NCBI GenBank assembly: GCA_964652615.1
Contig: CAZZAT010000001.1
Coordinates: 284,337-348,336, forward strand
Length of the DNA stretch: 64,000 nucleotides
Reading direction: 5' to 3'
Source: an uncultured Candidatus Saccharibacteria bacterium
GTDB taxonomy: Bacteria; Patescibacteriota; Minisyncoccia; Phycocordibacterales; Phycocordibacteraceae
Under the pieces are notes generated by a model. It was not told the origin of the DNA, did no database searches, and worked only from the letters and a program-made list of their open reading frames with translations. A program made the translations under genes and the position numbers. Positions 33,144-51,694 of the stretch are shown piece by piece (positions within the stretch are counted from its first letter, which is position 1; every line of letters starts with the position of its first letter).

Positions 33144-33245
33144 GAGAGGAACTATAGCAAAAGGTTCGAATCCTAGGATGCCAACTAACTTTTGTGTGCA
33201 AAGAGAAAAGCCTACGCCCTTGCGGGTTTCGGCTCTCTGGAACTG

Positions 33246-33461
33246 TTATTTGTGCTTGAGCTTCGCTTTCACCTCTTCCTTGAAGCGCTCACGGTCTTCC
33301 GCCGGTACGGCGGCAACGTCCGCAGCGAAATCAAGATAGGTGAAGAGGTTGCCTCGCACCATAGATTCAACTTGGCTGTTGCCAACCAGGCTGGCTCGAT
33401 AGAGGTCGAGCGTATGGTCAACGAAGCTCGCGGCAGCTCGCACTTGATCTTCCGTATACAT
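33246..33461 (-). CDS. Hypothetical small cytoplasmic protein (cassette-array gene A)
   Basis: 71 aa; GGAG RBS 8 nt upstream; consensus promoter TTGACA-17-TAATAT upstream. Confidence 0.45.
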   Translation of the reverse strand: MYTEDQVRAAASFVDHTLDLYRASLVGNSQVESMVRGNLFTYLDFAADVAAVPAEDRERFKEEVKAKLKHK

Positions 33462-33487
33462 GACACGTCTCCTGCAGTCCTGGATTA

Positions 33488-33516
33488 ATATTAAGACACG
33501 GTAAACGCTATGTCAA
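33488..33516 (-). promoter_or_regulatory. Sigma-70-like promoter (TTGACA, 17-nt spacer, TAATAT) for gene A
   Basis: Read on the minus strand: TTGACAtagcgtttaccgtgtctTAATAT, directly downstream of repeat copy 1. Confidence 0.55.
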
Positions 33517-33522
33517 TAGCGC

Positions 33523-33551
33523 GGTTCCAACATCGTCCCAGGATGCCAGCA
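33523..33551 (+). repeat. 29-bp conserved element, copy 1 (GGTTCCAACATCGTCCCAGGATGCCAGCA)
   Basis: Manual alignment of the seven copies; followed by hairpin cgacccgc...gcgggtcg. Confidence 0.7.
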
Positions 33552-33607
33552 ACAAAACGACCCGCCGTTCCCTTGCGGTACTTAGCGGGTCGCTCATGCG
33601 TGTTGTC

Positions 33608-33967
33608 TTAGTTCATGGCGTAGTATGCCTTGGTCGCTTCGAAGTACTCATCGGACCAGCGCGGATCGAGGATGAAGACTCCTGTGATCCGCTGCGTGGT
33701 CCGCGTCGCCACGAGCTGTGCCAGGAATCGAGACTCCTGGTCCGTGTTGTCGATGCGGCGGATTTGTCCGTCGGTCGTCGTATAGATGACGCCACCGCAC
33801 TCGTCGATCCGAACCGAGCAACGCATAGCCCATTGCTCGACTTCGTACTCCGTTGCGATGACCGGCCTGAGCCCGTTATCCTGGGCAGCAGGCCGCGTCG
33901 GGTCCGATCCGCATGATGCGAGCGCGAGAAGCGCAGACACCAGAACAAGACTTTTCACATGCAGCAT
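33608..33967 (-). CDS. Putative lipoprotein (cassette-array gene B)
   Basis: Signal peptide with lipobox LALASC; AGGGAG RBS; start at the internal ATG 33967. Confidence 0.5.
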   Translation of the reverse strand: MLHVKSLVLVSALLALASCGSDPTRPAAQDNGLRPVIATEYEVEQWAMRCSVRIDECGGVIYTTTDGQIRRIDNTDQESRFLAQLVATRTTQRITGVFILDPRWSDEYFEATKAYYAMN

Positions 33968-34080
33968 GTGTATCTCCCTTTGCTGATGGGTGGTTGCCCA
34001 CGTGAACGGGTTTCCTAATAAATTATACACAAATATAGATATATGTCAATAACCTAGGTACACAGGCTCTTTTTCTAAAA

Positions 34081-34109
34081 AGTTCCAACAGCGTCCCAGA
34101 CAGCCAGCA
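34081..34109 (+). repeat. 29-bp conserved element, copy 2 (AGTTCCAACAGCGTCCCAGACAGCCAGCA)
   Basis: Followed by hairpin aaaccgcccgac...gtcgggcgggttt plus TTTATT. Confidence 0.7.
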
Positions 34110-34164
34110 TAAAAGAAACCGCCCGACCCAAGGAGCCGAGAGGTTCCTTTTGAGTCGGGCGGGT

Positions 34165-34398
34165 TTATTGCAATTGTGCTTGAACGCGGTCGCAGGGCAC
34201 TTCGACGACAACGTATGAGGCGTTGGCGTGAGCTGTGCCAGGAGCCGTCGTGACGCCGAAGCAGAGTCCGTTGCGAGTATCCTGAACGTAATTCAGGCTA
34301 TCGACAATAGCTTGTGCTCGGGTGTCGCTCGGGCTGCTGGGTTGGCCGCAGCTAGCGACCAAAACGGCCAAGCAGGCTGCAAAAACGAGCTTACGCAT
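34165..34398 (-). CDS. Putative small lipoprotein (cassette-array gene C)
   Basis: 77 aa; lipobox LVASC; GGGAG RBS. Confidence 0.5.
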   Translation of the reverse strand: MRKLVFAACLAVLVASCGQPSSPSDTRAQAIVDSLNYVQDTRNGLCFGVTTAPGTAHANASYVVVEVPCDRVQAQLQ

Positions 34399-34462
34399 GT
34401 CTTTCTCCCAAGGTTCAACTCAAAGTATATGCTACATAGTAACGCTACTTTGTCAATAGCAT

Positions 34463-34491
34463 GGTTCCAACAGCGTCCCAGACAGCCAGCA
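34463..34491 (+). repeat. 29-bp conserved element, copy 3 (GGTTCCAACAGCGTCCCAGACAGCCAGCA)
   Basis: Preceded by tgtcaatagc (reverse complement gives a TTGACA -35 for gene C); followed by hairpin taatctc...gaggatta. Confidence 0.7.
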
Positions 34492-34794
34492 TGGCTTAAA
34501 ACCTAATCTCCACAGACATGAGGATTAGTACTATCGAACTACTTGCATATTTTTAATACCTCGCTATTCTTATCTTTGGAAAGTCTGAAACTCTCTGCTG
34601 GTGACGAACTGGTCTATCAAGCCGCCAGAACGACAGAGAGGAAATGGGAATTGCAGCCCTAACCTATAGCTAAGGTGCCAAATGGGAACCGCGAGGTTCC
34701 AACCGACGCTTAGGGGAGTGCCCCACAACCGTGATCAGCGAGTTAGGGGAGCGCACACGATCCGATAGGATTTTCCGCTCTTTCAACCAATAGC

Positions 34795-34823
34795 CACCCC
34801 ATGCGCGGGGTGGCTAACTTTTT
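34795..34823 (+). terminator. Hairpin plus T5 tract ending a ~290-bp non-coding stretch
   Basis: gccacc-atgcgcgg-ggtggc followed by taacTTTTT. Confidence 0.4.
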
Positions 34824-34830
34824 GCATAAA

Positions 34831-34859
34831 AGTTCTAACTTCGTCCCATTCCCTCAGCA
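34831..34859 (+). repeat. 29-bp element, degenerate copy 4 (AGTTCTAACTTCGTCCCATTCCCTCAGCA)
   Basis: About 20 of 29 positions match the consensus; lies just upstream of the DUF1653 gene. Confidence 0.45.
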
Positions 34860-34879
34860 ATTTGTTAGAATTATTTACA

Positions 34880-35160
34880 TGGAATATAAGAAACTTGATA
34901 CGTCCGTAATCCGCAATCGTATCTATGAGCATTACCGAGGCAATCGCTATGTCGTCGTTGATATTGCAAAGAATGCTGATCTCGACGGAGATGAGTTTCT
35001 GGTCATCTATCGCGCGCTTTATGATCACGGGCAGTTGTACTCAACAGCGCTAGAGCGGTTCACAGGACTCAATAGTGAAGGCACTCCTCGTTTCCGCCTG
35101 GTCGACATCGAAGAGGGGAACCGAAACCCTAATCACGTCTATCCAACGATTACGATGTAG
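34880..35160 (+). CDS. DUF1653-like small protein (cassette-array gene D)
   Basis: IYEHYRGNRYVVVDIAKNADLDGDEFLVIYRALYD...PRFRLV resembles the DUF1653 pattern (hYKG..Y.V...A.HSET.E.LVVY..LY). Confidence 0.55.
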
Positions 35161-35170
35161 TTTGGACAAA

Positions 35171-35199
35171 AGTTCCATAATCGTCCCAGACGGCCAGCA
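35171..35199 (+). repeat. 29-bp conserved element, copy 5 (AGTTCCATAATCGTCCCAGACGGCCAGCA)
   Basis: Followed by hairpin atgcccgg-aatgt-ccgggcat, which also serves as the terminator of minus-strand gene E. Confidence 0.65.
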
Positions 35200-35238
35200 T
35201 CGGCAAAAGAAAATGCCCGGAATGTCCGGGCATTAGTC

Positions 35239-35463
35239 TTAGTCTGTGGCACTCCTGAGTTCAAGGAACCTCTTGGCTTGAGAATACCCACAATCGTAGT
35301 GCTCGTTGCCTTTAAGTTCAAAGTTAGGCTCACGACCATTGTCAGCGTCCTCAGCTCCCATTTGTCGTAGGCGTGCTGGGCTCACTTCAACACCTCTCAT
35401 GTGGTCAAAGACGCCAGTGCAGTTTGTGGGCCTGTCCCACCGACCGGTCTCATGGTTGTACAT
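35239..35463 (-). CDS. Hypothetical small protein (cassette-array gene E)
   Basis: 74 aa; GAGGAG RBS. Confidence 0.45.
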   Translation of the reverse strand: MYNHETGRWDRPTNCTGVFDHMRGVEVSPARLRQMGAEDADNGREPNFELKGNEHYDCGYSQAKRFLELRSATD

Positions 35464-35503
35464 GATGTATCTCCTCTGAAATCAAGAGTACCAGACCTAG
35501 ACT

Positions 35504-35530
35504 GGTTCCAATAGCGTCCCAGACAGCCAG
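35504..35530 (+). repeat. 29-bp conserved element, copy 6 (GGTTCCAATAGCGTCCCAGACAGCCAG, 3' end truncated)
   Basis: Ends 18 bp before the NUDIX gene start; no hairpin follows. Confidence 0.65.
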
Positions 35531-35548
35531 AAACGGTATACTGTTCGC

Positions 35549-36046
35549 ATGAGTGAATATCCAGATAAGCTTGTTTCTTGCAGGACTCTCGATGGAGAGC
35601 TTAAGCAGGTGCGCGTTGGAGACCTTACATTCAGGCCTTCGATATACGGCGTGGCGATAAAAGATAACAAAGTTCTCCTTGTCCCATGTAAGGACGGATA
35701 TGATTTTCCTGGAGGTGGGATCCATGAAGGCGAACCAATGCTTGAATCTCTCGTTCGAGAAGTAAAAGAAGAAAGTGGTATTGAAGTAGAGGTGGGAGAT
35801 ATTCTCTACGCAAAAGACGATTTCTTTATTCATCCACGAAGCCAAAAGGCCTTTCACACCACACTAATGTATTACACGGTAACCCCAGTAGGAGGAGAAC
35901 TTTCCAGCGCGGGACTTACTGAGTTCGAGAAGACTCTTGCTAAAGACCGCCTTCCGGAATGGGTAGACATATCAAAGATTGATAATCTCAAGTTCTACAA
36001 TCCTATAGACAGTCCAGCTCTAGTTCGCAAGGCCTCAAGACACTAA
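35549..36046 (+). CDS. NUDIX hydrolase (cassette-array gene F)
   Basis: Nudix box GGGIHEGEPMLESLVREVKEESGIEV (Gx5Ex7REUxEExGU). Confidence 0.75.
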   Translation: MSEYPDKLVSCRTLDGELKQVRVGDLTFRPSIYGVAIKDNKVLLVPCKDGYDFPGGGIHEGEPMLESLVREVKEESGIEVEVGDILYAKDDFFIHPRSQKAFHTTLMYYTVTPVGGELSSAGLTEFEKTLAKDRLPEWVDISKIDNLKFYNPIDSPALVRKASRH

Positions 36047-36054
36047 GCGAGGGC

Positions 36055-36083
36055 GGTTCCAACTACGTCCCAGACAGCCAGCA
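36055..36083 (+). repeat. 29-bp conserved element, copy 7 (GGTTCCAACTACGTCCCAGACAGCCAGCA)
   Basis: Followed by bidirectional terminator aggcgaggac-taaaa-gtcctcgcct TTCGTTT. Confidence 0.7.
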
Positions 36084-36090
36084 ACATAAA

Positions 36091-36122
36091 AGGCGAGGAC
36101 TAAAAGTCCTCGCCTTTCGTTT
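36091..36122. terminator. Bidirectional rho-independent terminator
   Basis: 10-bp GC-rich stem with T tracts on both strands; between convergent genes F and G. Confidence 0.6.
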
Positions 36123-36360
36123 AACGACGGGTACCGATGAATTCATCAGACAGACGCTTCAGACGCTTACGCGCCCGACGACGACTCCACTTCTTGAACG
36201 TCGAAAGCTTAACATTCAAGGCTTGGCAGCAATGACACCCGTAGGTGTGCTTGCCGTGGCGTGCGCCGCCAGGGTTAGTATCCATCTTCTGCATCTGCCG
36301 AAACACATCAGCCATGAGACTCTCCTTAGGTGAGGTTAGGCTCTCATACTGACTCTCCAT
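36121..36360 (-). CDS. Hypothetical small basic protein (cassette-array gene G)
   Basis: 79 aa; C-terminus very basic (KKWSRRRARKRLKR); CHCC cluster. Confidence 0.35.
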   Translation of the reverse strand: MESQYESLTSPKESLMADVFRQMQKMDTNPGGARHGKHTYGCHCCQALNVKLSTFKKWSRRRARKRLKRLSDEFIGTRR

Positions 36361-36658
36361 GGTTATTTCTGGACAGACCCTACCACATATGTTGGAAATA
36401 CTTCAACAGCACTTTAGGTGTGGTACAGTCGAGCATATGGGTGGATATATTTTCTTAATGGTTCTCATAATGCTCGGCATCGTCGGGCTTCTCGGTCTTG
36501 TCTTTTTGCTTACCAAACCAAAGAAAGGAACGGGAGATCAAACGAAACACACAGTACGCATCTTTTTGTGGCTACCCCTCATTGCCGCAGGACTCTGTCT
36601 CTTGGTGATTATTGGTATAGCTGTGTACACGGTCATGACGGGACCGTACAGTCTCTAA
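36359..36658 (+). CDS. Small two-TM membrane protein (start uncertain, possibly 36437)
   Basis: Two hydrophobic helices (IFLMVLIMLGIVGLLGLVFLL; LWLPLIAAGLCLLVIIGIAVY). Confidence 0.35.
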   Translation: MVISGQTLPHMLEILQQHFRCGTVEHMGGYIFLMVLIMLGIVGLLGLVFLLTKPKKGTGDQTKHTVRIFLWLPLIAAGLCLLVIIGIAVYTVMTGPYSL

Positions 36659-37953: not shown

Positions 37954-39624
37954 CTAATTAGGAAGGTCTACCGTTCTTCGCACTTCCTCAAGAGTCGTGA
38001 CGCCAGCGAGCGCTTTAACGACAGCATCTTGTGTCATGGTGAGATACCCTTGGCGCACCACGTGCTTTGCAATATCTCCTTCAGACGGGTTATCGCGAAG
38101 GAAGGTACCAAGTTCTTCATCCATAAAGATAGCTTCGTGTACGCCGGTACGTCCTTTGTATCCGGTTGTACCGTCTTCACCTGGAACGGCGTCATACAAC
38201 GTATCAAAAGAAGCGGGGCGTAGCGTTTCATCTCCAAGGTTTTCAAACACTTTCTCCATAACGCGCTTTTCTTCGTCGGTAGCAGGACGCGCTTTCTTTG
38301 TGGTCTGATCGAGTGTGCGAAGGAGGCGCTGCGCCATGGCAACCGTAATAGCAGATGCGAATGACTTTGGATCAACACCAAGATCTACAAGGCGGGGGAA
38401 GGTACCAGCCGCGTTATTTGTGTGAAGCGTTGAGAAGACAAAGTGTCCCGTGAGCGCAGCCTGTATTGCTGTCTCTGCCACCTCTTTGTCGCGGATTTCT
38501 CCTACGAGAATAATGTCAGGGTCTTGGCGGAGTACCGAGCGAAGACCAGAAGCAAAGGTGTAGTTCTTTCCGTCAGTTTGTGTTTGGACGATACCCTCGA
38601 GGTGGTATTCGACGGGATCTTCAATCGTCACAATCTTTGTCTGTGGCGTATGGAGTTCGCGAAGGAAGGTATACAGCGTCGTTGTTTTACCAGAACCGGT
38701 AGGGCCGGTGGTAAGGAGCATGCCGTTTGGACGCTGTATTTCGCGGCGCAATTGCGCAAGGAGTTTCCCGTGTACGCCCATGTCCTCAAAGGAGCGGTTC
38801 AGGGTGTTCGGGTCGAGAATACGCAGCACGATAGCTTCTCCATAGTTTCCAGGAATAACCGAAGCGCGCACCTCTATTTCTTTCCCGCGAACCGCAATAG
38901 TGAAGCGTCCGTCTTGCGCTTGGTTTTCAATGTTCAGCTTCAAACCAGAAAGGAGCTTCACGCGGGAATTCAATTGTTTATACGTACGCGGGTCAAAGTC
39001 GTACGCATCTTGGAGAAGGCCGTCGAGGCGAAGGCGAAGGCGTACTGCTTTCTCTTCCGGCTCGATGTGAATGTCAGACGCTTTCATGGAAAGGGCAGCG
39101 GCAATGATGTCCTCAAAGACACGAGAAACTTGCGCCGCTTTCCCGCCGCCCAAGAGTTCATCGAGGTGTGCGTGTAGGGCGCTAAGGCTTGCAAAGGATT
39201 CTGAAAGCTTGTCGAAGTCTTGTGCAGAAATATCAAACACGCCAGCAGTGGTTACGTGCGCATATGAAAGGTCTTCGTAGCGGGCAAGTGCTTTTTCAAG
39301 GCTTCGTCCTGAAACCATGAACTTCTCAAGAAGAAAATCACGTCCTTCAAGATCGGCGTATACATTGGCAAGCTCTGGATTTTGAGGACTGCGCACGGCA
39401 ACAGAAAGTTTCTTGCCCGCACGATCAAAAGCAACAATTTCGGCCTTGCGCGCCGTCTCTTCGCTAATCAAGCGAAGCGCATCGACGTTTACCGGCACGA
39501 CCGAAAGGTCGGTATACGTTAAGCCGTACTTATCTGAAAGGATGCGAGCAAGATCCTCTTCCTCCTTTTCACGAAGTTCTGCAAGCTTCTTATCCTCTGC
39601 GTCAGTATCGAATTTCTGGGGCAT
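37954..39624 (-). CDS. pilB: Type IV pilus assembly ATPase PilB (GspE family)
   Basis: Walker A LLTTGPTGSGKTTTLY; Asp/His boxes; Walker B ILVGEIRD; 556 aa. Confidence 0.85.
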   Translation of the reverse strand: MPQKFDTDAEDKKLAELREKEEEDLARILSDKYGLTYTDLSVVPVNVDALRLISEETARKAEIVAFDRAGKKLSVAVRSPQNPELANVYADLEGRDFLLEKFMVSGRSLEKALARYEDLSYAHVTTAGVFDISAQDFDKLSESFASLSALHAHLDELLGGGKAAQVSRVFEDIIAAALSMKASDIHIEPEEKAVRLRLRLDGLLQDAYDFDPRTYKQLNSRVKLLSGLKLNIENQAQDGRFTIAVRGKEIEVRASVIPGNYGEAIVLRILDPNTLNRSFEDMGVHGKLLAQLRREIQRPNGMLLTTGPTGSGKTTTLYTFLRELHTPQTKIVTIEDPVEYHLEGIVQTQTDGKNYTFASGLRSVLRQDPDIILVGEIRDKEVAETAIQAALTGHFVFSTLHTNNAAGTFPRLVDLGVDPKSFASAITVAMAQRLLRTLDQTTKKARPATDEEKRVMEKVFENLGDETLRPASFDTLYDAVPGEDGTTGYKGRTGVHEAIFMDEELGTFLRDNPSEGDIAKHVVRQGYLTMTQDAVVKALAGVTTLEEVRRTVDLPN

Positions 39625-39679
39625 TTCAAGGGCAATGATACCACCTAGGGGAGGGCGTATATACAGCCTTTTCGGGGTA

Positions 39680-39708
39680 TTGACAGTATCTTTCTATTGT
39701 GATATATT
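39680..39708 (+). promoter_or_regulatory. Sigma-70-like promoter TTGACA-17-TATATT
   Basis: Read in the pilB/39744 intergenic region; drives the high-GC secreted-protein gene. Confidence 0.5.
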
Positions 39709-39743
39709 TAACTTACCTTTGACCGCCAACCCAGGAGGGAAGA

Positions 39744-40178
39744 ATGCGGATGAACATTGGGAGTTTCGGTATTGTGGCAGCGGCAGCCCTGCTTGGCATG
39801 CTCTCGTTCGCTCCGGCGGCCGAGGCGCAAGAACGGCGTCAGTTCCAGTATGGTGCTGAGCGTTGCTACGGCTCTCACGAGCGCTGCTCGGAGCGTCAAC
39901 GCAGTCGCGAAAGCGGCGGGACTCGCCTCACCGGCGACCAAGCGGTGGAGATTGAACATCTCCGGACGGAACAAGCGCGGCTTCATGCGCAAGCTGCTCG
40001 TGATAACGCTCGCGCCCGTGTCGCTACCACCATTCTCGGTGGTGTGGCGCAAGTCGCAATCGCGCGCGAGCGCAACCGCAACGCGCGGCGGTATCAACAA
40101 CCGCCGTCGTACTACCAGCCGCCGCCGCGTCGTCAGCCGCCGCGCCACCGCTGCAACCACGGTTGCCGTTACCACTAA
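39744..40178 (+). CDS. Secreted Arg/Gln/Tyr/Pro-rich small protein
   Basis: Signal peptide ...LSFAPAAEA; region is about 60% GC against about 50% genome-wide; C-terminus QQPPSYYQPPPRRQPPRHRCNHGCRYH. Confidence 0.45.
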   Translation: MRMNIGSFGIVAAAALLGMLSFAPAAEAQERRQFQYGAERCYGSHERCSERQRSRESGGTRLTGDQAVEIEHLRTEQARLHAQAARDNARARVATTILGGVAQVAIARERNRNARRYQQPPSYYQPPPRRQPPRHRCNHGCRYH

Positions 40179-40287
40179 AACCGAAACGAAGAGAGGGCTC
40201 CAGCTTACGCTGGGGCCCTTTTTATATCTTGCCAAAAACCATATTTCATTGCAGGATGCGTTTAGAACCTGAATGGAAGGAGACGAC

Positions 40288-40596
40288 ATGCTTAGGTTCC
40301 TTGTAGCGTTCATAGCGCTTATGTTCACTGGCCTTTTCGCTTCTCCTGCAGAAGCGCACGGACGAGACTGGCAACATCGCTATTGTGGCGAGCGGCACGT
40401 TTCGCGTGACCGCGGATGCGGCGACTGCGGCTACCATCGTCGCTATCGTAGGCCACCACCCCCAGCGTGGCACGGCGAATACCGCCGTTCCGTGCGCGAG
40501 TACGGCTACCACTATACTCGCAGTGGTTATACGGTATGGAGGCGGCACTACTACGGGTGCGAGCGTCATCACGTACGCCGCTACCGGCGGTGGTAG
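40288..40596 (+). CDS. Secreted His/Arg/Tyr/Cys-rich small protein
   Basis: Signal peptide MLRFLVAFIALMFTGLFASPAEA; mature ~80 aa with 6 Cys, many RRY/HRR repeats. Confidence 0.4.
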   Translation: MLRFLVAFIALMFTGLFASPAEAHGRDWQHRYCGERHVSRDRGCGDCGYHRRYRRPPPPAWHGEYRRSVREYGYHYTRSGYTVWRRHYYGCERHHVRRYRRW

Positions 40597-40659
40597 AAAG
40601 ACAGAAGGGCTTCTGCGTACAGCAGGAGCCCTTTTCTCATACATTGGTACAATCAGTGT

Positions 40660-41094
40660 ATGGAGAGGCGCATTCACACTATCGAAGACTTAGACGCAGA
40701 AGCTAGGGCGTTTGCTGCCTCTCTCTCACCGAAAGACTCTGGCGCCACACTCGTTTTTCTTTCTGGAGAACTTGGAGCAGGGAAGACAGCTTTTACCAAA
40801 GCTGCTGCAGCTGCGCTTGGTGTTGCAGAACACGTTACAAGCCCTACGTTCGTACTCGAGAAGATATACGCGCTTGAAGAGCAGCGTTTCCTTCGGCTCA
40901 TACACATAGATGCATATCGCTTGCAGGATGCGAGCGAGCTTGCGGCACTTGGTTTTGATGAGGCGATGGCGGATAGAGATACGCTTATCTTTCTTGAATG
41001 GCCCGAGCGCGTTTCCGATATGGCGCACACGGCAACGGTTTCCATAACGCTTGTCGCGCACGATGATGGTTCGCGCACCCTTACCTATGATTAA
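40660..41094 (+). CDS. tsaE: tRNA threonylcarbamoyladenosine biosynthesis protein TsaE
   Basis: VFLSGELGAGKTAFTK, SPTFVL, HIDAYRL motifs. Confidence 0.8.
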   Translation: MERRIHTIEDLDAEARAFAASLSPKDSGATLVFLSGELGAGKTAFTKAAAAALGVAEHVTSPTFVLEKIYALEEQRFLRLIHIDAYRLQDASELAALGFDEAMADRDTLIFLEWPERVSDMAHTATVSITLVAHDDGSRTLTYD

Positions 41095-44424: not shown

Positions 44425-44430
44425 CTCGTG

Positions 44431-44503
44431 TCCGCCCGCCAGGGCTCGAACCTGGGACCGTCTCCTTAAAAGGGAGCTGCTCTACCAACTGAGCTACGGG
44501 CGG
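44431..44503 (-). tRNA. tRNA-Lys (anticodon UUU)
   Basis: Manual cloverleaf fold: acceptor CCGCCCG/CGGGCGG, D-arm GCTCAGTTGGTAGAGC, anticodon loop CTTTTAA, T-arm CCAGGTTCGAGCCCTGG. Confidence 0.8.
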
Positions 44504-44538
44504 ATGCTCTACAACGTAGCACTTTGTGCGTGTTGTTT

Positions 44539-45468
44539 CTAGTACGAAAATTCACTCACTACCTTTCCTTCAGCATCAAGAAGGAGAACGGTCTCTCCGC
44601 TCTTCTGCCAGAGCTCGCTTCCTTGCCCCAAGAATAAGCGCCAAGTACGCCCTTCAAAATCACTATCATTTTCGTGCGCATCAACACAGCCGTTGTAATT
44701 CAGGTAGTCTTGGGCAAATGCTTCACAGGAAGCGGACGCACTTCCTGACGCTTCGCTTGCACAGTAGGGGATAGTGCGAAGATAGGCGAGACATCGCTCA
44801 TCCTCGTCGTCATAAAAGCGTTCGTATTCCTGGTACGCCGTAGGACAAGCTTGGGTAAGCGGGGGTCGAAAGTCCTGTCGCTCTTCAAAGTAGCCGGTAC
44901 ATTTATTTTCCTTAAAGGAAATGCCAATAGGAGAGCGACCCGAGACGATGATGGCAGTATCGCCTGCTTCAAAGGTGATGGGAGAGAGTACGTTTACTCT
45001 TCCTGATTGAGGCAGCTCTGCTGCTTGCGGAAACGGTACGCCTCGGCCTGTCTTTTTACTCACCAGCTTCCATCCTGCAGTTGGGACAGAACCGTAGGCA
45101 TTTAGGGTGAGGTACTCCTTATCCTCATCTGTTTCTTTTGCACCATACGGGTCAGGAACAAGCGATACGAGCGATGCGTTTCCTGAAGCTCCTGGCGCAT
45201 AAGTTCCGCCGGTGCCGCCTGAAGATATGTTTGCGCCAAAACCCCCAATACTTATGCCGGTAGAAAACCCAGCATAGCCGCTTGGGTCTCCGTACGCTTC
45301 TGCTGTCTGGCCTGGGCCTGAAATAGGACGCAGATACGGGCCTGCAAATGAGATGGGACGATTAGGGCCGCCGCCAGCAACCCAGATAACAAAGAAAAGA
45401 AGGAAGATACCGACAAAGAGAAAGAGATCGCCGCCAACGCCTCCGCCACCTTCAGATTTTTCCGCCAT
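44539..45468 (-). CDS. Membrane-anchored Gly-rich hypothetical protein with Cys-containing C-terminal domain
   Basis: N-terminal TM FLFVGIFLLFFVIWVAGGG; Gly-rich linker. Confidence 0.45.
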   Translation of the reverse strand: MAEKSEGGGGVGGDLFLFVGIFLLFFVIWVAGGGPNRPISFAGPYLRPISGPGQTAEAYGDPSGYAGFSTGISIGGFGANISSGGTGGTYAPGASGNASLVSLVPDPYGAKETDEDKEYLTLNAYGSVPTAGWKLVSKKTGRGVPFPQAAELPQSGRVNVLSPITFEAGDTAIIVSGRSPIGISFKENKCTGYFEERQDFRPPLTQACPTAYQEYERFYDDEDERCLAYLRTIPYCASEASGSASASCEAFAQDYLNYNGCVDAHENDSDFEGRTWRLFLGQGSELWQKSGETVLLLDAEGKVVSEFSY

Positions 45469-45475
45469 GTACTTT

Positions 45476-46732
45476 CTATGATACCAACTGCTTGAGCTCT
45501 TCTCGTACTACCTGTGCATCACTCCATGGTTCTTTTGTACCGTTTGCACGCATGATGAATGGATCGGTGCCTTTTCCGGTTATAAGAACAGACGAGTCGG
45601 GAGAGGCGGCGCGAAGTGCAGCGCGTATCGCTTCACGCCTATCCATGATGATAGTTGGCTTTCGTTTCATGCCGCGTGCCATTGCTTCAACAATGTCGTG
45701 CGGGTCCTCATCATAGGGATCTTCATCGGTTAGAAATACCTGTTCGCATTCTCTGTCTGCAATGTGTCCCATCTCTGGACGCTTCCAGGTGTCACGCCCG
45801 CCCCCCGTATTTCCAAGCACGCAAATCTTCTTTCCAGGATATGCGCCATAGAGCGCTTCGAGCGAATCAGGGGTATGCGCGTAATCGACAACCACCGTAA
45901 ACGGCTGACCCTCTTCGATGCGCTCTGTTCTTCCGGGGATGCGTTCAAGTGAAGCGAGCGCCGAAGCAATCTTCTCTAAAGGAACGCCCACAAACTCTGC
46001 AGCGTGTATAACTGCAAGTGCGTTCATGACCGAGAAGCTTCCAGGAAGATGGAGTGAGAACGAGACGCCTTTGTAGGTAAAAGACACGTGCCCTTTGGTG
46101 AGTACAAGGTTCTCGGCTTCTTGATAGGAGAAAGGATGCTTTTCTTCAAGAGGAAGTGCGAGATATGGGGCGCTTGCTGCATCATCGCTATTTGCAATGA
46201 TGGCGCGTGGACGCTTTCTCGAGTGGAGAAGCGATGTACCGATGCGGAACTTTGCGGCTGCGTACTTTTCATAAGAGCCATGCGATTCAATATGCTCTTT
46301 CTGAAGGTTCGTGAAGATGAGCGCATTCAGATCAAGAAATAGGTGTCGGTAGAGCTTCGTGCTTTCCGAAGTAATTTCAACAACCGCATGCGTACAGCCA
46401 GAACGCACCGCTTTCTGCAGGAAGCGCTGTATGAAGCCTCGTCCTGGGAGGGTCATCTTATAGAGGTTCGGTTCGCTCTTTTCGTTAATAGCAAAGCGTA
46501 TGGTGGAAGCGGCGCACACGGCATAGCCTGACTTGTGCAATACGCTGTAGAGCATATCTGAAACAGAAGACTTTCCCTTTGTGCCCGTAACGCCTATCAC
46601 TACAAGCTTACGCGATGGAAAGCCTGCGAGCACCGCCGAGAAGACAGCGAGAGCGTAGTGGTAGGGAAGCGTGAGCGCGTGATACACCGAGCGCGGAAGG
46701 AGCTTCTGGAGGAGAGAGCGGAGAGTACGCAT
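45476..46732 (-). CDS. murE: UDP-N-acetylmuramoyl-tripeptide ligase MurE (Mur ligase family)
   Basis: P-loop GVTGTKGKSS; DYAHTPDSLEAL signature. Confidence 0.8.
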   Translation of the reverse strand: MRTLRSLLQKLLPRSVYHALTLPYHYALAVFSAVLAGFPSRKLVVIGVTGTKGKSSVSDMLYSVLHKSGYAVCAASTIRFAINEKSEPNLYKMTLPGRGFIQRFLQKAVRSGCTHAVVEITSESTKLYRHLFLDLNALIFTNLQKEHIESHGSYEKYAAAKFRIGTSLLHSRKRPRAIIANSDDAASAPYLALPLEEKHPFSYQEAENLVLTKGHVSFTYKGVSFSLHLPGSFSVMNALAVIHAAEFVGVPLEKIASALASLERIPGRTERIEEGQPFTVVVDYAHTPDSLEALYGAYPGKKICVLGNTGGGRDTWKRPEMGHIADRECEQVFLTDEDPYDEDPHDIVEAMARGMKRKPTIIMDRREAIRAALRAASPDSSVLITGKGTDPFIMRANGTKEPWSDAQVVREELKQLVS

Positions 46733-46738
46733 ACCAAA

Positions 46739-47299
46739 TTAAGCTTTCGCGGAGAGCGCCGCTTTCAGACGCGCATCCTTGCCTTCAACAGAGGAAGGAA
46801 TGGATGAGAGTGCGCTTCGCGCTTCGCGTTCTGTGTATCCAAGGGCGACGAGCGTATCGAAGACTTCCGCATCCTCTCCTTGTGTTCTTGTACCGCTACT
46901 ACCAAGCTTCTCTGAAATTTCGACAACAAGCTTCTCGGCTGCTTTCTTTCCAAGACCCACTACGCGAGTGAGATAGGAAACATCGCGTGCGCCAATTGCT
47001 TTTTCAAGTGCTTCGCGCGGAGCTCGCTTCAAGAGTGAGAGCGCAGTTTTAGGGCCAACGCCCGAAACAGAAAGAGAGAGTTCAAAAAAGCGCAGATCGG
47101 CAGGGTCTATAAATCCGTACAACTCCATACCGTCTTGCTTAACGGCAAGATGCGTTTGAAGGGAAATAGAGTCGCCAACAGCAAAAGCATCAGGAGAGGG
47201 CACAAAGACGAGTACGCCAAACCCTGCCACATCGACAACTACCCCCATGGGCTCTACCGAAAGGACGGTCCCCGCTATCGCTCGAATCATTCTCCCCAT
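46739..47299 (-). CDS. ruvA: Holliday junction DNA helicase RuvA
   Basis: MIRAIAGTV...; HhH motifs LSVSGVGPKTAL, VVGLGKKAAEKL; C-terminal domain III. Confidence 0.85.
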   Translation of the reverse strand: MGRMIRAIAGTVLSVEPMGVVVDVAGFGVLVFVPSPDAFAVGDSISLQTHLAVKQDGMELYGFIDPADLRFFELSLSVSGVGPKTALSLLKRAPREALEKAIGARDVSYLTRVVGLGKKAAEKLVVEISEKLGSSGTRTQGEDAEVFDTLVALGYTEREARSALSSIPSSVEGKDARLKAALSAKA

Positions 47300-47339
47300 T
47301 CTTGCATATCCGAGGGAAATGCCGTAGTGTTGCACTCAC

Positions 47340-47582
47340 ATGGCAATCACGACATCAGCAAAGAAGGCCCACCGCGCATCGCTTCGCAAGCGCGTTTTTA
47401 ACGTACGCCGCAAGCGTGCACTACATAGCGCAGTCAAGGATGCACGAAGCTCCATGAGCACCGAGTCGCTCGCAAAGGCATACCAGGCAATTGATAAGGC
47501 GGCAAAGCGCGGCGTTATCAAAAAGAACACTGCAGCGAGAAAGAAGTCGAGACTCGCGAAAGCAATTGCGAAGAAAGCGTAA
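47340..47582 (+). CDS. rpsT: 30S ribosomal protein S20
   Basis: MAITTSAKKAHRASLRKRVFN... Confidence 0.9.
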   Translation: MAITTSAKKAHRASLRKRVFNVRRKRALHSAVKDARSSMSTESLAKAYQAIDKAAKRGVIKKNTAARKKSRLAKAIAKKA

Positions 47583-47589
47583 CGATAGA

Positions 47590-47615
47590 AACCCCGCGAG
47601 AGCGGGGTTTCTTCG
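47590..47615 (+). terminator. Rho-independent terminator after rpsT
   Basis: ccccgc-gaga-gcgggg TTTCTT. Confidence 0.6.
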
Positions 47616-47623
47616 TATCAGGG

Positions 47624-47696
47624 TGCTTCCAGCAGGAATCGAACCTGCATTTTCTCCTTCGGAGGGAGATGTCCTATCCATTGAACGACAGAAGCG
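47624..47696 (-). tRNA. tRNA-Arg (anticodon CCG)
   Basis: Acceptor GCTTCTG/TGGAAGC, D-arm GTTCAATGGATAGGAC, anticodon stem-loop TCTCC-CTCCGAA-GGAGA, T-arm GCAGGTTCGATTCCTGC. Confidence 0.75.
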
Positions 47697-47760
47697 TTCA
47701 TCGCGTTATAGCATGCGGCGCCTTGCCAGTGTGCCTAAGGAACGCTACAGTCTGCGTACT

Positions 47761-47832
47761 GCTCTCGTCGTTCAATGGATAGGACGCTAGCTTGCGGAGC
47801 TGGTAATGTAGGTTCGATTCCTGCCGAGAGCA
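47761..47832 (+). tRNA. tRNA-Arg (anticodon GCG as read; may be ACG-like)
   Basis: Acceptor GCTCTCG/CGAGAGC, identical D-arm GTTCAATGGATAGGAC, anticodon loop TTGCGGA, T-arm GTAGGTTCGATTCCTGC. Confidence 0.7.
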
Positions 47833-47838
47833 CACGAT

Positions 47839-47869
47839 ACACAAAGCGCCCCAGAGGGGCGCTTTGTGT
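47839..47869. other. Long perfect hairpin (13-bp stem) between the tRNA-Arg gene and the convergent CDS
   Basis: acacaaagcgcccc-agag-ggggcgctttgtgt; no clear U-tract on either strand. Confidence 0.4.
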
Positions 47870-48342
47870 TAGAGACGAAAGAGTTCAACGACCCTATCAA
47901 TAGGAGATTCGTGATGGTTGCCTTCTTCAAGGTGGAGCGCAAGGTACTCGTATATTTCAACCGGATCATGCCCGATGATAGGTATGAGAAGGTGGGGAGT
48001 AAGGAAATGCTTTGTCTTTATGGAAAGAGATGGGGGGAGGGCTTCATCTGCGTACTCAAGAACAGAGAAGTGCAGCATGTTCTCAAATGGGTAGAAGTCA
48101 TTATCAACAGCAACGCCGTCTTCTAGAATCATGAAGCGGTGCGTGTGGGGCGCTTTTGCAGCAGCAGCAGCAATTGATACAGCGGCTGCAAAAATGACGA
48201 GTGCGAGGATAACATTCCCAAAGAGTATGGAAGAGATGCCAGCAGCGGTAGCAAAAATGCCGAGCGCCCAGTACCAGTCTGCGCTTTTTTCTTCGAAACG
48301 GTATTCACTGCCTTCCCACTCGTAAAGAGCTTTTCGAGCCAT
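47869..48342 (-). CDS. Hypothetical membrane protein
   Basis: Start moved to the internal ATG 48342 because the longer ORF overlaps tRNA-Ser; two TM helices. Confidence 0.4.
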   Translation of the reverse strand: MARKALYEWEGSEYRFEEKSADWYWALGIFATAAGISSILFGNVILALVIFAAAVSIAAAAAKAPHTHRFMILEDGVAVDNDFYPFENMLHFSVLEYADEALPPSLSIKTKHFLTPHLLIPIIGHDPVEIYEYLALHLEEGNHHESPIDRVVELFRL

Positions 48343-48368
48343 GCGGATATGATAGCACCACTTCTTAG

Positions 48369-48453
48369 CGGAGGAGGTGAGATTCGAACTCACGGTACCT
48401 TGCGGCACTCCTGTTTTCAAGACAGGTGCGATAGACCACTCTGCCACTCCTCC
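48369..48453 (-). tRNA. tRNA-Ser (anticodon UGA)
   Basis: Acceptor GGAGGAG/CTCCTCC, D-arm GGCAGAGTGGTCTATCGC, anticodon stem-loop CCTGT-CTTGAAA-ACAGG, long variable arm, T-arm GTGAGTTCGAATCTCAC. Confidence 0.8.
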
Positions 48454-48767
48454 TAGTTCTTCTTTGGCGCGTACGCCATGAGTTCACGCTTTACGTCTTT
48501 CAAGAAAGGAAAGACTGCTTCGCGTGAGCCATCTGCAGCTTTCTGAAACCACTTCAAATAGATGATTTCAAGAATGCCCGCTGTGTTTATAACAAGGAGT
48601 GCGACAAACCACCAGCGCTGCCCGTGACGGCTTGCATGCCAGAGTGCAATTGCTTTCCACGCGAACGTCCAGACGATAAGGGCGACAAAGAGTGTAGGAA
48701 ATATAATGCCAAGCCCCGCACCATGAAGCAGGGGACCGATAAGGGAATCGCCAGTAGCGTGCCACAT
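48453..48767 (-). CDS. Small membrane protein (start uncertain: 48767 or 48821)
   Basis: Two TM helices GLGIIFPTLFVALIVW and WWFVALLVINTAGILEIIYL; the longer ORF would overlap the ruvX start. Confidence 0.35.
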   Translation of the reverse strand: MWHATGDSLIGPLLHGAGLGIIFPTLFVALIVWTFAWKAIALWHASRHGQRWWFVALLVINTAGILEIIYLKWFQKAADGSREAVFPFLKDVKRELMAYAPKKN

Positions 48768-48812
48768 GCAGGACACGATACCACAAGCTTCTTTTGTTGG
48801 TAGTATGGGCGT

Positions 48813-49196
48813 ATGCGGCATCTCGGCATCGATTTTGGTACCAGAAAAGTAGGCCTTGCGCTCTCTGATGAAGCGGGAACGATGGGGTTTCCGCACGAGG
48901 TGTTGCCAAATAGCGAACGCCTTCTTGAAGAGGTGCGCACCCTCATACAAAACAAAGATGTAGGGTGTGTTGTTATCGGAGATTCGCGAAACGCGAAAGG
49001 AGAAGAAAACCCTATCGCAAAAGAGGCGCGTGCGTTTGGAGATGCGCTCTCTGCACAAGGCATTCGCGTTGTCTACGAAATGGAAGCGTTTTCAACGCAG
49101 GAAGCGCGTCGTGATGTGGAAGGAAACCGCACAAATACAGGAGCAGTGGACGCTTCTGCAGCTGCGCTTATACTAACGGCTTACCTTTCAAAATAA
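48813..49196 (+). CDS. ruvX: Putative pre-16S rRNA nuclease / Holliday junction resolvase-like YqgF (RuvX)
   Basis: MRHLGIDFGTRKVGLALSDE...VVIGDSRNAKGEENP... Confidence 0.8.
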   Translation: MRHLGIDFGTRKVGLALSDEAGTMGFPHEVLPNSERLLEEVRTLIQNKDVGCVVIGDSRNAKGEENPIAKEARAFGDALSAQGIRVVYEMEAFSTQEARRDVEGNRTNTGAVDASAAALILTAYLSK

Positions 49197-49198
49197 CT

Positions 49199-49525
49199 AT
49201 GGCAACTCTCGAAGACTTGGGAAAGATTGAGGTGCGAGTGGGCACCGTGCTTTCTGCCGAGCGCGTTCCAGAGACAGACAAACTCCTGCGCCTTATGGTT
49301 GACCTTGGAGAACCGGAGCCGCGCCAGATAGTGTCCGGTATTGCAGCGTATGTTGAAGATCCGCAAACGCTTGTCGGGCGCCAGCTTTCATTTGTTGCAA
49401 ATCTTGAACCGCGCACCATTAAAGGGCTTGAATCAAACGGCATGCTCTTTGCAACAGGACAGGGAGAGACGTTTGCATTTCTTGTTCCTGATAGAACAGT
49501 GCCTCCTGGAACAGGCGCGCACTAA
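49199..49525 (+). CDS. tRNA-binding domain protein (EMAP/Trbp111/CsaA-like)
   Basis: LGKIEVRVGTVLSAERVPETDKLLRLMVDLGEP...QIVSGIAAYV resembles an OB-fold tRNA-binding domain. Confidence 0.7.
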   Translation: MATLEDLGKIEVRVGTVLSAERVPETDKLLRLMVDLGEPEPRQIVSGIAAYVEDPQTLVGRQLSFVANLEPRTIKGLESNGMLFATGQGETFAFLVPDRTVPPGTGAH

Positions 49526-49557
49526 TTTGAAAGAGCGCGTGCGCTATACTACAGAGC

Positions 49558-50640
49558 ATGAACGCTCTTTCGAGGTTTCTGCGCGTTGAATTTGCACCGC
49601 CCTCCTATCTTTCTCTCCCTACCGCAGGCATTGATATTTCAACGAGCGGGATAAAGATAGCGTGCATTAAGGAACACATGCACGGTCTTGAACTCGCTTC
49701 ATTTGCTGAAGAGGCGCTTCCGTCGGGCGCCGTGGTTGGAGGAGAAATACGTGATCCGCATGCGGTTATCGAAGGAGTGCGCAAACTTGCGCACGAGCAC
49801 AACATACGTCTTGCAAATGTGGCGCTGCCTGAAGCGCGCGGCTATCTCTTTGAAGCTGAAGTTCCCGCAGGCACCAAGAACGAGCAGCGGGTTGCGGTTG
49901 AGCGCAAGCTCGATGAGTATGTGCCGCTTCCTTCAGGTGAAGTTATTTTTGATATTGCTCCTGTGGGGAAGTCAGATGCAGGTATGCGTGTGGTTGGTAC
50001 CGGCTATGCGCGCCGTGTCCTTGAAGAGACGCTTGCAGTTATGGACGATGCACACGTTCAGGTGCGCGCCGTTGAAAGCGAAACCTTTGCGCTTCCAAGA
50101 GCACTCTTACCGCACGACAATAAGGAAACCGCACTTATTATCGATATTGGGAAAACCACGACAAAGCTTCTCGTTGTTACAAACCGTCTCCCGCGGTATG
50201 TGACGACCCTTGATATTGGCGGACACGCACTCACACTTGCTGTCGTGAAGCATTTTGGCGTGTCAGAAGAAGAAGCAAAGCAGGTAAAAGCAGAGAAGGG
50301 CATAGCGCCAGGAGCAGGAAATGAAGAGTATCTTGCTTCCATGCTTTCAACAGTTTCAGTTATCCGTGATGAAATAGGGAAGCGTCTCGACTACTGGCAA
50401 TCAAGATCTGGACAGGTCGATGCGGTGACACGGGCTGTGTTGGTTGGAGGAAACGCAACGGTGCTTGGCCTTCCTGAATATCTTGAGGCAGCACTTAAGG
50501 TGCCGGTGGCGCTTGGCGATGTGTTTGCGAACTTCGCATCAAGAAATGTCTGGCTCCCGCCCCTTGAGTATCAGGAGTCGCTTGCTTACGGCACAGCGAT
50601 AGGTCTGGCGCTCCGCGAGCAAGCAGCAGTATCTCTATGA
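49558..50640 (+). CDS. pilM: Type IV pilus assembly protein PilM (actin-like ATPase)
   Basis: ...GIDISTSGIKIACIK...DIGKTTTKLLVV...LVGGNATVLGLPEYL; precedes pilN/pilO. Confidence 0.8.
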   Translation: MNALSRFLRVEFAPPSYLSLPTAGIDISTSGIKIACIKEHMHGLELASFAEEALPSGAVVGGEIRDPHAVIEGVRKLAHEHNIRLANVALPEARGYLFEAEVPAGTKNEQRVAVERKLDEYVPLPSGEVIFDIAPVGKSDAGMRVVGTGYARRVLEETLAVMDDAHVQVRAVESETFALPRALLPHDNKETALIIDIGKTTTKLLVVTNRLPRYVTTLDIGGHALTLAVVKHFGVSEEEAKQVKAEKGIAPGAGNEEYLASMLSTVSVIRDEIGKRLDYWQSRSGQVDAVTRAVLVGGNATVLGLPEYLEAALKVPVALGDVFANFASRNVWLPPLEYQESLAYGTAIGLALREQAAVSL

Positions 50641-51188: not shown

Positions 51189-51694
51189 AAACACCCGCTC
51201 TTACCCATCTCATCGTAGCCGCACTAGTATTTCTTGTGTTGGTGGGTGCGTATGTCTATGCGTTTTTTGAAACGCAACGCCTTGAGCGCGACGTACTGAC
51301 GCTTTCAGCGGATATTGCTGCAAAAACGAACGAGCATCAGGAGGCAGGATCGGTACGTACTGCGCTTGCTGAAGTTGAAGCACAAGAAGCAAAGCTTGAA
51401 AGCCATCTTGTGCCTGCTTCAGACATTGTGCCGTTTCTTGAGAGCGTGGAAGCTCTCGGGAGCGAGTTTGGCGCACGCGTTTCGGTACTTTCGGTAAGTG
51501 ATCCTGCAGAAGATGGGAAGATAGCATTGTCGCTTTCAGTTGAAGGCTCTTTTGATGCGGTGATGCGCACCGTTGGCGTTCTTGAAAACAGCACGCGTGC
51601 AAGCGTGATACGTTCGCTTACTCTTGATGCGGCAGATGACGGCATGTGGAGTGCTGCCGTCTCCGCGTTTTCACTTGCCCCACTTTCACCATGA
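51185..51694 (+). CDS. pilO: Type IV pilus assembly protein PilO-like
   Basis: N-terminal TM plus coiled coil; operon position. Confidence 0.55.
   Translation: MKTPALTHLIVAALVFLVLVGAYVYAFFETQRLERDVLTLSADIAAKTNEHQEAGSVRTALAEVEAQEAKLESHLVPASDIVPFLESVEALGSEFGARVSVLSVSDPAEDGKIALSLSVEGSFDAVMRTVGVLENSTRASVIRSLTLDAADDGMWSAAVSAFSLAPLSP

Follow-up and report, generated by a model that had tools for sequence, protein, structure and literature searches.

Between the divergent genes pilB and tsaE of an uncultured Candidatus Saccharibacteria bacterium lies a spacer of about 1 kb whose guanine-plus-cytosine (GC) content rises well above that of its surroundings. What does this islet encode, and did it come from elsewhere? 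We analysed it within a 64,000-nt stretch of the genome (GCA_964652615.1, contig CAZZAT010000001.1, positions 284,337 to 348,336), hereafter the window, whose own numbering is used throughout. The spacer (39625-40659) is an insulated cassette set between the divergent pilB and tsaE promoters, consisting of a sigma-70-type promoter, a gene for a predicted small secreted protein (g1), a terminator (T1), a second such gene (g2) and a second terminator (T2). We are highly confident in reading it as an old cassette of its clade that holds real, fast-evolving genes. An initial annotation of the same DNA had described two small secreted cationic proteins, each behind a strong promoter and possibly horizontally acquired. 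Its observations prove largely correct apart from two errors, the g2 promoter and the g2 cysteine count; its interpretation stands for the small secreted cationic proteins, given their export signals and charges of +12 and +13, and falls for horizontal acquisition, since the locus is syntenic in relatives.

The cassette and its two genes

Both genes lie on the + strand, each framed by its own translation and termination signals:

39680-39708, + strand: g1 promoter, TTGACA-17 nt-TG-a-TATATT, 11/12 matches plus TG
39733-39738, + strand: g1 Shine-Dalgarno site AGGAGG, 5 nt before the ATG (read from the sequence)
39744-40178, + strand: g1, 144-aa precursor; predicted signal peptide at residues 1-28 (..APAAEA/QERR, the slash marking cleavage), mature chain 116 aa
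40190-40228, + strand: T1, 15-pair hairpin, then a U-run (UUUUU); dG -26.7 kcal/mol, z = -6.0
40277-40282, + strand: g2 Shine-Dalgarno site AAGGAG, 5 nt before the ATG (read from the sequence)
40288-40596, + strand: g2, 102-aa precursor; predicted signal peptide at residues 1-23 (..SPAEA/HGRD), mature chain 79 aa
40600-40640, + strand: T2, hairpin, then UUUUCUC; dG -26.0 kcal/mol, z = -6.8

Relatives of the locus were found by searching public genomes and metagenomes with PilB and then reading the flanks. The closest relative found, L028 (Ga0172380_10000500; PilB 86%, PolA 80% and TsaE 65-69% identical), has the two genes in identical order, served by the same promoter and terminators, its g1 and g2 orthologues being 42% and 48% identical to those of the window in MAFFT alignments. 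Only three sites in the window reach at least 11/12 promoter matches, one of which is the g1 promoter; its -35 hexamer, spacing and TG-n-TAT element are kept in L028 amid otherwise diverged DNA. The initial annotation had recognised this near-consensus promoter (TTGACA-17-TATATT), which additionally bears the TG extension. Both Shine-Dalgarno sites are likewise kept in L028, where AAAGGAGG occupies the position equivalent to that of g2. T1 and T2 each combine a stable GC-rich hairpin with a U-run downstream of a stop codon, the hallmarks of intrinsic (Rho-independent) terminators; a simple consensus scan overlooked both, and folding energy revealed them. The T1 stem is preserved in L028 despite changes on both arms, and a hairpin equivalent to T2 is found in L028 and in other relatives with genes at this site. 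The strong promoter formerly assigned to each gene is thus present for g1 and missing for g2, before which the promoter scan returned nothing comparable (best candidate TTGCCA-17-CAGGAT).

Alternative-frame open reading frames (ORFs), which the initial annotation had noticed, do overlap both genes, and automatic annotation prefers them:

39708-40328, - strand: antisense ORF over g1, 206 aa (called as 201 aa in Logan contigs); not a gene
40246-40677, - strand: antisense ORF over g2, 143 aa, beginning inside tsaE and spanning T2; not a gene

The gene calls of two identical Logan contigs (SRR15237804, SRR15237817) include neither g1 nor g2, but the 201-aa antisense ORF together with an off-frame ORF of 95 aa. 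The wrong calls are those at 3791-4078 and 4171-4776 of L001 and 4426-4857 of L048 (201, 95 and 143 aa). Were the annotated ORFs the true genes, g1 and g2 would be artefacts of GC-rich DNA. Such a view can draw on the Logan and ENA calls themselves (201-206 aa on the - strand, 95 aa on the + strand and, in ENA, 143 aa on the - strand) and on the low codon-usage log-odds of g1 (0.05) and g2 (-0.13), scored against the long genes of the window, which reach 0.16-0.41. However, the rival antisense and off-frame ORFs fare no better on this measure (-0.14 to +0.10), and conservation favours the sense frames: in tblastn against L028 the sense translation of g1 matches at E 1e-22 and its antisense at E 3e-11, the latter frame being broken by a stop in L028, whereas sense g2 matches at E 3e-14 and the antisense and off-frame translations of the g2 region give zero matches. 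Differences between the window and L028 by codon position amount to 0.37/0.36/0.58 in g1 and 0.45/0.28/0.70 in g2, and because third positions are the most variable, the sense frames are taken to be coding; third positions are also the most variable in 7 further orthologous pairs of genes from this site. The + strand is the one served by the promoter, both Shine-Dalgarno sites, the signal peptides and the terminators, and the ORF over g2 would have to begin within tsaE. That the antisense frames are open at all is explained by the absence of TTA, CTA and TCA codons from g1 and g2. By these sequence criteria g1 and g2 are real + strand protein-coding genes and the antisense ORFs are by-products, which leaves the annotated frames with next to no probability of being the true genes. 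Because callers pick antisense or off-frame ORFs, often the antisense one, the true secreted proteins are absent from protein databases, and the apparent orphan status of the proteins encoded at this site is probably in part an annotation artefact.

The two products are small, basic, of low sequence complexity and unusual in composition. Mature g1 has a net charge of +12 and 4 Cys, and Arg, Tyr, Gly, Pro and Gln together make up 48% of it; its Pro/Gln/Arg/Tyr-rich tail includes the Pro/Arg/Tyr stretch RRYQQPPSYYQPPPRRQPPRHR and ends in HRCNHGCRYH, just as the initial annotation had quoted. Mature g2 has a net charge of +13, 4 Cys and 9 His, with the same five residues reaching 57%; Arg accounts for 27% (21% of the precursor), Tyr for 14% and His for 11%. 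A previous description of g2 as about 80 aa with 6 Cys is therefore right in length, the mature chain having 79 aa, and wrong in its cysteine count. Both N-termini bear the hallmarks of cleavable, Sec-type (type I) signal peptides, namely a basic n-region, a hydrophobic h-region (Kyte-Doolittle 15-residue maxima of 2.2 for g1 and 2.5 for g2) and an AEA site (MRMNIGSFGIVAAAALLGMLSFAPAAEA/QERR in g1, MLRFLVAFIALMFTGLFASPAEA/HGRD in g2). The L028 orthologues retain predicted sites, TAEA for g1 and AYA for g2. Mature g2 and its L028 orthologue both open with His-Gly (AEA/HGRD, window 40357-40362; AYA/HGSRD). N-terminal His residues of other proteins can form a 'histidine brace' that binds copper.

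AlphaFold2 (AF2) models suggest little fixed structure beyond one element. For g1, the model begins with the helix of the signal peptide and a Cys-containing N-terminal segment of low confidence, continues with a single long helix (residues 64-118; predicted local distance difference test score, pLDDT, about 90) and ends in a low-confidence tail; for g2, residues 23-102 have pLDDT below 50, about 40 throughout the mature part. From these models, g2 and the g1 tail are predicted to be largely disordered. We rejected a transmembrane anchor in the g1 helix (VATTILGGVAQVAIA), where the 19-residue hydropathy is 1.13 and in the L028 orthologue 0.42; no transmembrane segment follows the signal peptide, 1.13 being the best 19-residue Kyte-Doolittle average in g1. 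A type IV pilin or pseudopilin, considered in view of the pilB neighbour, was also rejected: a G/FTxxE motif is absent, an AxA cleavage site stands in its place, and there is no pilin Pfam match. Tandem duplication was considered for the two genes, which match each other by BLASTP at E 3e-4, mainly in the signal peptide, their mature parts reaching 2.4% in hhalign.

The slot in related genomes and the question of acquisition

The cassette sits between two well-defined genes, in agreement with the flanks named by the initial annotation:

37954-39624, - strand: pilB, PilB-type T2SSE ATPase (Pfam T2SSE E 9e-103)
39635-39643, - strand: pilB promoter, extended -10 TGGTATCAT, 10 nt before the pilB ATG (read from the sequence)
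40645-40653, + strand: tsaE promoter, TG-g-TACAAT, 6 nt before the tsaE ATG (read from the sequence)
40660-41094, + strand: tsaE (Pfam E 5e-32), with polA next

The PilB relatives are metagenome-assembled genomes labelled Patescibacteria, Paceibacterota, Parcubacteria or 'Saccharibacteria', and we accordingly assign the window to a Paceibacterota-like bacterium of the candidate phyla radiation (CPR). Among these relatives the order pilB, tsaE, polA is conserved, and the pilB-tsaE spacer is bimodal in length, being 46-83 bp in at least 13 relatives (an empty slot) and 570-1060 bp in 19 (an occupied one). Empty sites keep solely the two divergent promoters, an ATCATA/ATGATA -10 for pilB and TGGTACAAT-N6-ATG for tsaE. 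Occupied sites add to these a TTGACA-type -35 hexamer 32-78 nt from the pilB ATG (19/19, 18 of them exact; both hexamers match at 12/12 positions in 8/19), followed in the orientation seen in the window by one or two ORFs, each with a Sec signal peptide or a lipobox. In most of them a GC-rich hairpin with a T-run can be made out immediately ahead of the TACAAT box of tsaE.

The proteins encoded in the slot share a character more than a sequence. The 21 mature products all have a net positive charge (+3 to +21), contain 2-11 Cys and consist to 32-63% of Arg, Tyr, Gly, Pro and Gln; about 14 end in a short C-x(2-10)-C loop like the HRCNHGCRYH of g1, as judged from C-termini read by eye. They fall into families GA, GB and GC plus singletons, mostly unalignable with one another or with g1 and g2, and hhalign probabilities among g1, g2 and the relatives' families lie below 3%, except for 77% between GA and GB. 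In a neighbour-joining tree of PilB, cassette family type tracks the clades, and clades with empty sites fall inside groups of occupied ones. Most simply, the slot would hold an ancestral expression cassette that has been lost repeatedly and whose coding sequence changes at great speed. Divergence from L028 illustrates the pace: non-synonymous divergence (dN) is 0.53 for g1 and 0.51 for g2, as against 0.11 for pilB, 0.15 for polA and 0.29 for tsaE, so that g1 and g2 evolve about five times faster than pilB at non-synonymous sites. Synonymous divergence (dS) from L028 is saturated.

Could the islet instead have been acquired recently from a donor of higher GC, with its deviant GC and codon usage as the donor's signature? 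The deviation itself is real, as the initial annotation had claimed. The window has a GC of 0.499, the spacer 0.581, g1 0.646 and g2 0.605; the spacer has z = 3.7 relative to all other 1035-bp windows of the 64 kb, and the most GC-rich 300 bp of the whole (0.670, at 39851) lies inside it. Codon usage deviates as well, neither measure being uniform with the window or genome: GC at third codon positions (GC3) is 0.657 in g1 and 0.614 in g2 where 0.46 and 0.50 are expected (z = 4.7 and 2.4). In composition (GC 0.58-0.65 vs 0.50, with these GC3 values), the islet is thus as atypical as a genomic island should be; GC and GC3 are well above the genome range, and the GC3 of g1 exceeds that of 24/24 reference genes. 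An acquisition would also fit the lack of homologues in large protein collections, save a single L028-type g1 orthologue, and the slot being empty in at least 13 relatives.

Yet the distribution of the cassette is not that of an island that is absent from, or incongruent with, its relatives. L028 has the g1-g2 pair in unchanged order along with a homologous promoter and homologous terminators, an analogous cassette occupies the same site in 19 relatives, and its type follows the PilB tree; moreover, with synonymous sites saturated against L028, any mark left by a donor should have faded by now. The relatives' slot genes show the GC3 excess again despite differing genome GC, at +0.06 to +0.35 over the flanks in 17/19, and because of this recurrence we regard it as a lasting property of the locus and not as a donor signature. 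Hallmarks of mobility are missing too. The spacer contains just g1, g2 and alternative-frame ORFs, none of integrase or transposase type; no tRNA target lies beside it, the nearest tRNA being 3.8 kb off; repeat searches returned no significant flanking direct or inverted repeats and no tandem arrays; and viral contigs, PHROGs and PADLOC gave no matches. A recent acquisition is therefore largely refuted and, in our judgement, very unlikely; the evidence points to an old, fast-evolving locus instead. No repeat of the islet occurs elsewhere in the 64 kb (best match 23 nt), and we rejected a diversity-generating retroelement target for want of a template/variable repeat pair, although no search specific for reverse transcriptase was made.

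The flanking promoters have a peculiarity of their own. Since the tsaE promoter ends 6 nt from the ATG, the tsaE mRNA is probably leaderless, and the -10 element of pilB, only 10 nt from its ATG, implies a very short leader. L028 and most relatives keep the TGGTACAAT-N6-ATG arrangement of tsaE, with or without genes in the slot; the pilB promoter is kept in L028, and the empty-site relatives have its ATCATA/ATGATA equivalent. In both genes (TGGTACAAT-N6-ATG and TGGTATCAT-N10-ATG) an extended -10 nearly touches the start codon and no Shine-Dalgarno site is seen. Of the more than 30 relatives examined, most keep this near-start motif, suggesting that these housekeeping mRNAs are leaderless or near-leaderless.

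Source of the GC excess

If the excess is not imported, how does it arise? Re-coding the two proteins with the codon usage of the genome gives an expected GC of 0.577 for g1 and 0.571 for g2; roughly half of the excess over 0.50 therefore reflects amino-acid composition (Arg, Pro, Gly, Ala). The remainder resides in codon choice, with observed GC3 exceeding expectation in g1 (0.657 vs 0.463, z = 4.7) and g2 (0.614 vs 0.501, z = 2.4). In g1, Pro is encoded by CCG in 8/8 cases, Arg by CGG in 6/24 and Ala by GCG in 9/21, with A-ending codons depleted. The excess is weak in the L028 orthologues (+0.10 and +0.005). Expression-linked codon bias is a plausible cause, as is GC-biased gene conversion at a recombining, diversifying locus. 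In line with the first option, the promoters are near-consensus, and the genes for L19 and NusG in the window also have raised G and lowered A at third positions.

Several other parts of the window bear on the same trend. The third of the sites with at least 11/12 promoter matches (TTGACT-16-TATAAT with TG; 61816-62644, +) precedes secE (61888-62073) and nusG (62075-62644), and the GC3 of nusG is raised to 0.58, consistent with an expression-linked trend. The sole other place in the window where GC exceeds 0.60 over 300 bp holds two small GC-rich lipoprotein genes, at 33608-33967 (-) and 34165-34398 (-), whose products begin MLHVKSLVLVSALLALASCG.. and MRKLVFAACLAVLVASCG..; neither has a Pfam match. 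A perfect TTGACA-16-TATAAT promoter at about 34049 (-) serves the first and a 10/12 promoter at about 34456 (-) the second, and both show depletion of A-ending codons and a GC3 excess like those of g1 and g2. They belong to a stretch of about 3.5 kb between yebC and ruvB (about 33200-36600) that also contains small ORFs and the genes for a DUF1653 and a NUDIX protein. In a comparison with L048 1-1900, the closest relative has a single 104-aa gene between yebC and ruvB, and the stretch looks like a second variable region.

Farther from the islet, the co-directional genes at 13111-25631 (+) encode large proteins with signal peptides or membrane segments. Among them are a gene for a TraG/VirB4-like P-loop ATPase (19885-21711; PF19044 E 3e-24) and one, at 14040-15542, whose match to DUF4141 is sub-threshold; the block is possibly a type IV secretion or conjugation-like system. 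Its GC3 is mostly ordinary or low (0.32-0.44), unlike that of the small secreted-protein genes, although values of 0.48-0.58 occur in the TraG-like gene and a pair of short ORFs. The interval 44430-57213 has eight dispersed tRNA genes (Lys, three Arg, Ser, Val, Leu, His), none of them adjoining the islet.

What the secreted products may do

Homology offers little guidance to function. Neither g1, g2 nor their L028 orthologues matched Pfam, NCBIfam, PHROGs or PADLOC above threshold, and 13 slot proteins of relatives gave nothing above threshold in Pfam and NCBIfam; sub-threshold matches to DUF3551 (E 0.1), Spy (E 0.05) and phrog_767 (E 0.017 and 0.075) were set aside. Sequence searches of the PDB gave no match, and a word-index search of a set of 5.8 billion protein clusters returned nothing for g1, g2 or a profile of g2 with its L028 counterpart (L028b). 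Full HMMER against 1.84 billion representatives with g1 as the query found just two proteins, P0001, which is the L028-type orthologue (E 1.4e-12), and P0002. Homology searching thus recovered an orthologue of g1 and no known family. P0002 (1048 aa) contains six CKFEYGTTTSYGS..C copies and matches residues 21-57 of g1 (QFQYGAERCYGSHERC) at E 5.8e-6; the match rests on a 37-residue FEYG..YGS..C motif and is probably spurious, a short-motif coincidence. The L028 orthologue of g1 retains a P0002-like motif (SFEYEESGRCYGSRDYC). Direct searches of JGI metagenome contigs and viral contigs with g1 and g2 found nothing, orthologues surfacing solely through the flanks of PilB, and an Rfam scan of the window placed no RNA family in the islet, only tRNAs elsewhere.

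Three known families were considered and rejected. DUF3551 (PF12071) comprises small secreted Cys-containing proteins and gave the sole Pfam match of g2, over residues 6-50 (the signal peptide and first Cys region), but at 13.2 bits against a cut-off of 26.5 (E 0.1), with no match for g1. A Spy/CpxP-type chaperone (NF007769) was matched by g1 at 13.9 bits against a cut-off of 174 (E 0.05). BA14K proteins (PF07886) are small secreted proteins of alpha-proteobacteria that resemble g1 and g2 in having a signal peptide, a short, positively charged chain with abundant Arg, Tyr, His, Gly and Pro, a Cys-containing C-terminal part and no enzymatic domain. However, the likeness is of composition alone: g1 and g2 come from another taxon, lack the C-terminal motif of BA14K and have no match to it at E<=1, nor do 13 slot proteins of relatives at E<=0.1. 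In layout the cassette recalls prophage morons, which place a small exported product with its own strong promoter and terminator, and deviant composition, between housekeeping genes, but it has no phage context, PHROG or viral match and is syntenic and vertically inherited across the clade. We conclude that g1 and g2 are uncharacterised, lineage-specific, fast-evolving small secreted proteins of a familiar kind in a conserved slot of predicted high expression, and that they do not constitute a new type of system.

How might such proteins act? Because the promoter is near-consensus, transcription is expected to be high. After cleavage of their signal peptides, g1 and g2 would pass beyond the single membrane as abundant polycations; some other clades would instead tether the slot product by a lipid anchor. 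With g2 and the g1 tail largely disordered, g1 forming one long helix and the Cys-Cys loops probably serving as disulfide staples, the proteins could bind polyanionic surfaces through their charge and through Arg/Tyr contacts. Candidate surfaces are the cell's own wall, the envelope of a host cell and extracellular DNA, and surface exposure would account for rapid divergence and repeated loss. Pro/Arg-rich and Arg/aromatic-rich antimicrobial peptides and Arg/Tyr 'sticker' proteins, which are adhesive or phase-separating, share the high Arg, Tyr and Pro content, the charge and the predicted disorder; g1 and g2 are longer and have no homology to them, so that the analogy is one of mechanism only. 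Surface binding by these polycations is a tentative proposal drawn from the protein sequences. As a whole, the account that joins cassette anatomy, history and surface-binding polycations is the best explanation we can offer, and one we hold to be reasonably probable.

A different use of the same features would be antagonism: g1 and g2 could be secreted antimicrobial or host-permeabilising peptides that act on the membrane of a competitor or host or on an intracellular target, by analogy with Pro/Arg- and Arg/Trp-rich peptides. Export signals, small size, charges of +12 and +13 and the Pro/Arg/Tyr tail of g1 (RRYQQPPSYYQPPPRRQPPRHR) agree with this, fast evolution and presence/absence variation would suit antagonism, and a predatory or parasitic lifestyle has been reported for Paceibacteria (bioRxiv 10.1101/2023.08.25.554742). 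The cassette, however, consists of g1 and g2 only, with no immunity, transporter, modification or processing genes and no match to a bacteriocin or toxin family; the Pro-rich tail is not kept in the L028 orthologue, and mature chains of 79-116 aa are long and very hydrophilic for membrane-active peptides. We regard this function as unlikely.

The His and Cys clusters raise the further possibility of extracytoplasmic metal binding, by which Cu, Zn or Ni would be captured or buffered. Candidate sites are HRCNHGCRYH in g1, HQHDCYCGHQRC in its L028 orthologue, the 9 His and 4 Cys of g2, and the conserved His that opens its mature chain. Both g1 orthologues retain a His/Cys-rich C-terminal cluster within a tail that has otherwise diverged, and mature g2 and its orthologue both begin with HG after the predicted cleavage site. 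Set against this, the spacing and number of Cys and His differ between orthologues, the slot proteins of relatives are mostly His-poor (0 to 6), no metal-binding family is matched, and no metal transporter or regulator lies nearby. Metal binding is, in our view, distinctly improbable.

Returning to surface-binding polycations in an old cassette, several points weigh against that account. The signal peptides were assessed by eye and by hydropathy, and the AF2 models were built from single sequences, so their low pLDDT is weak evidence for disorder. The two proteins have 4 Cys each in the window but 5 and 3 in L028, from which it follows that a fixed disulfide pattern is not conserved. In hhalign (<3%), g1 and g2 have no detectable homology to the slot genes of distant relatives; that these coding sequences share an ancestor is argued solely from their position, the signals around them and a common composition, and coding sequences may have been replaced within a conserved cassette. 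Finally, the expectation of high transcription applies less securely to g2, which has no convincing promoter of its own and lies behind a strong terminator, T1.

A broader and more speculative reading makes the slot a clade-wide, very highly expressed 'surface-contact' locus of Paceibacteria, encoding a hypervariable secreted or lipid-anchored Arg/Tyr polycation with a C-terminal Cys loop that serves as host glue or as an envelope-perturbing factor. We consider it improbable as stated; if true, sequence turnover and loss would track host switches, and the GC3 excess would mark expression-linked codon selection or GC-biased gene conversion at a diversifying locus. Paceibacteria have been described as highly expressing secreted proteins of unknown function in the context of a parasitic or predatory lifestyle (Kuroda et al., bioRxiv 10.1101/2023.08.25.554742). 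Those proteins belong to the same bacterial class as g1 and g2 and resemble them in their signal peptides, in the high expression expected of g1 and g2 and in a role proposed in contact with a host. Their adhesion-type domains (peptidoglycan-binding, Ig-like, PKD) can be recognised, whereas g1 and g2 have no recognisable domain.

Two practical consequences concern how such loci are read. Automatic gene callers mis-annotate this one, hiding proteins of its kind from databases and homology searches, and a local rise in GC should not be taken for horizontal transfer, as here it stems from composition and a GC3 bias that persists in the lineage. Most CPR bacteria (Patescibacteria) have never been cultured and presumably live in attachment to other cells, and how they recognise and hold their hosts is poorly known. 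A strongly promoted, fast-diverging exported protein at a fixed position offers a concrete and easily synthesised candidate for a host-contact or envelope function, and the slot is a potential marker locus for strain and host diversification.

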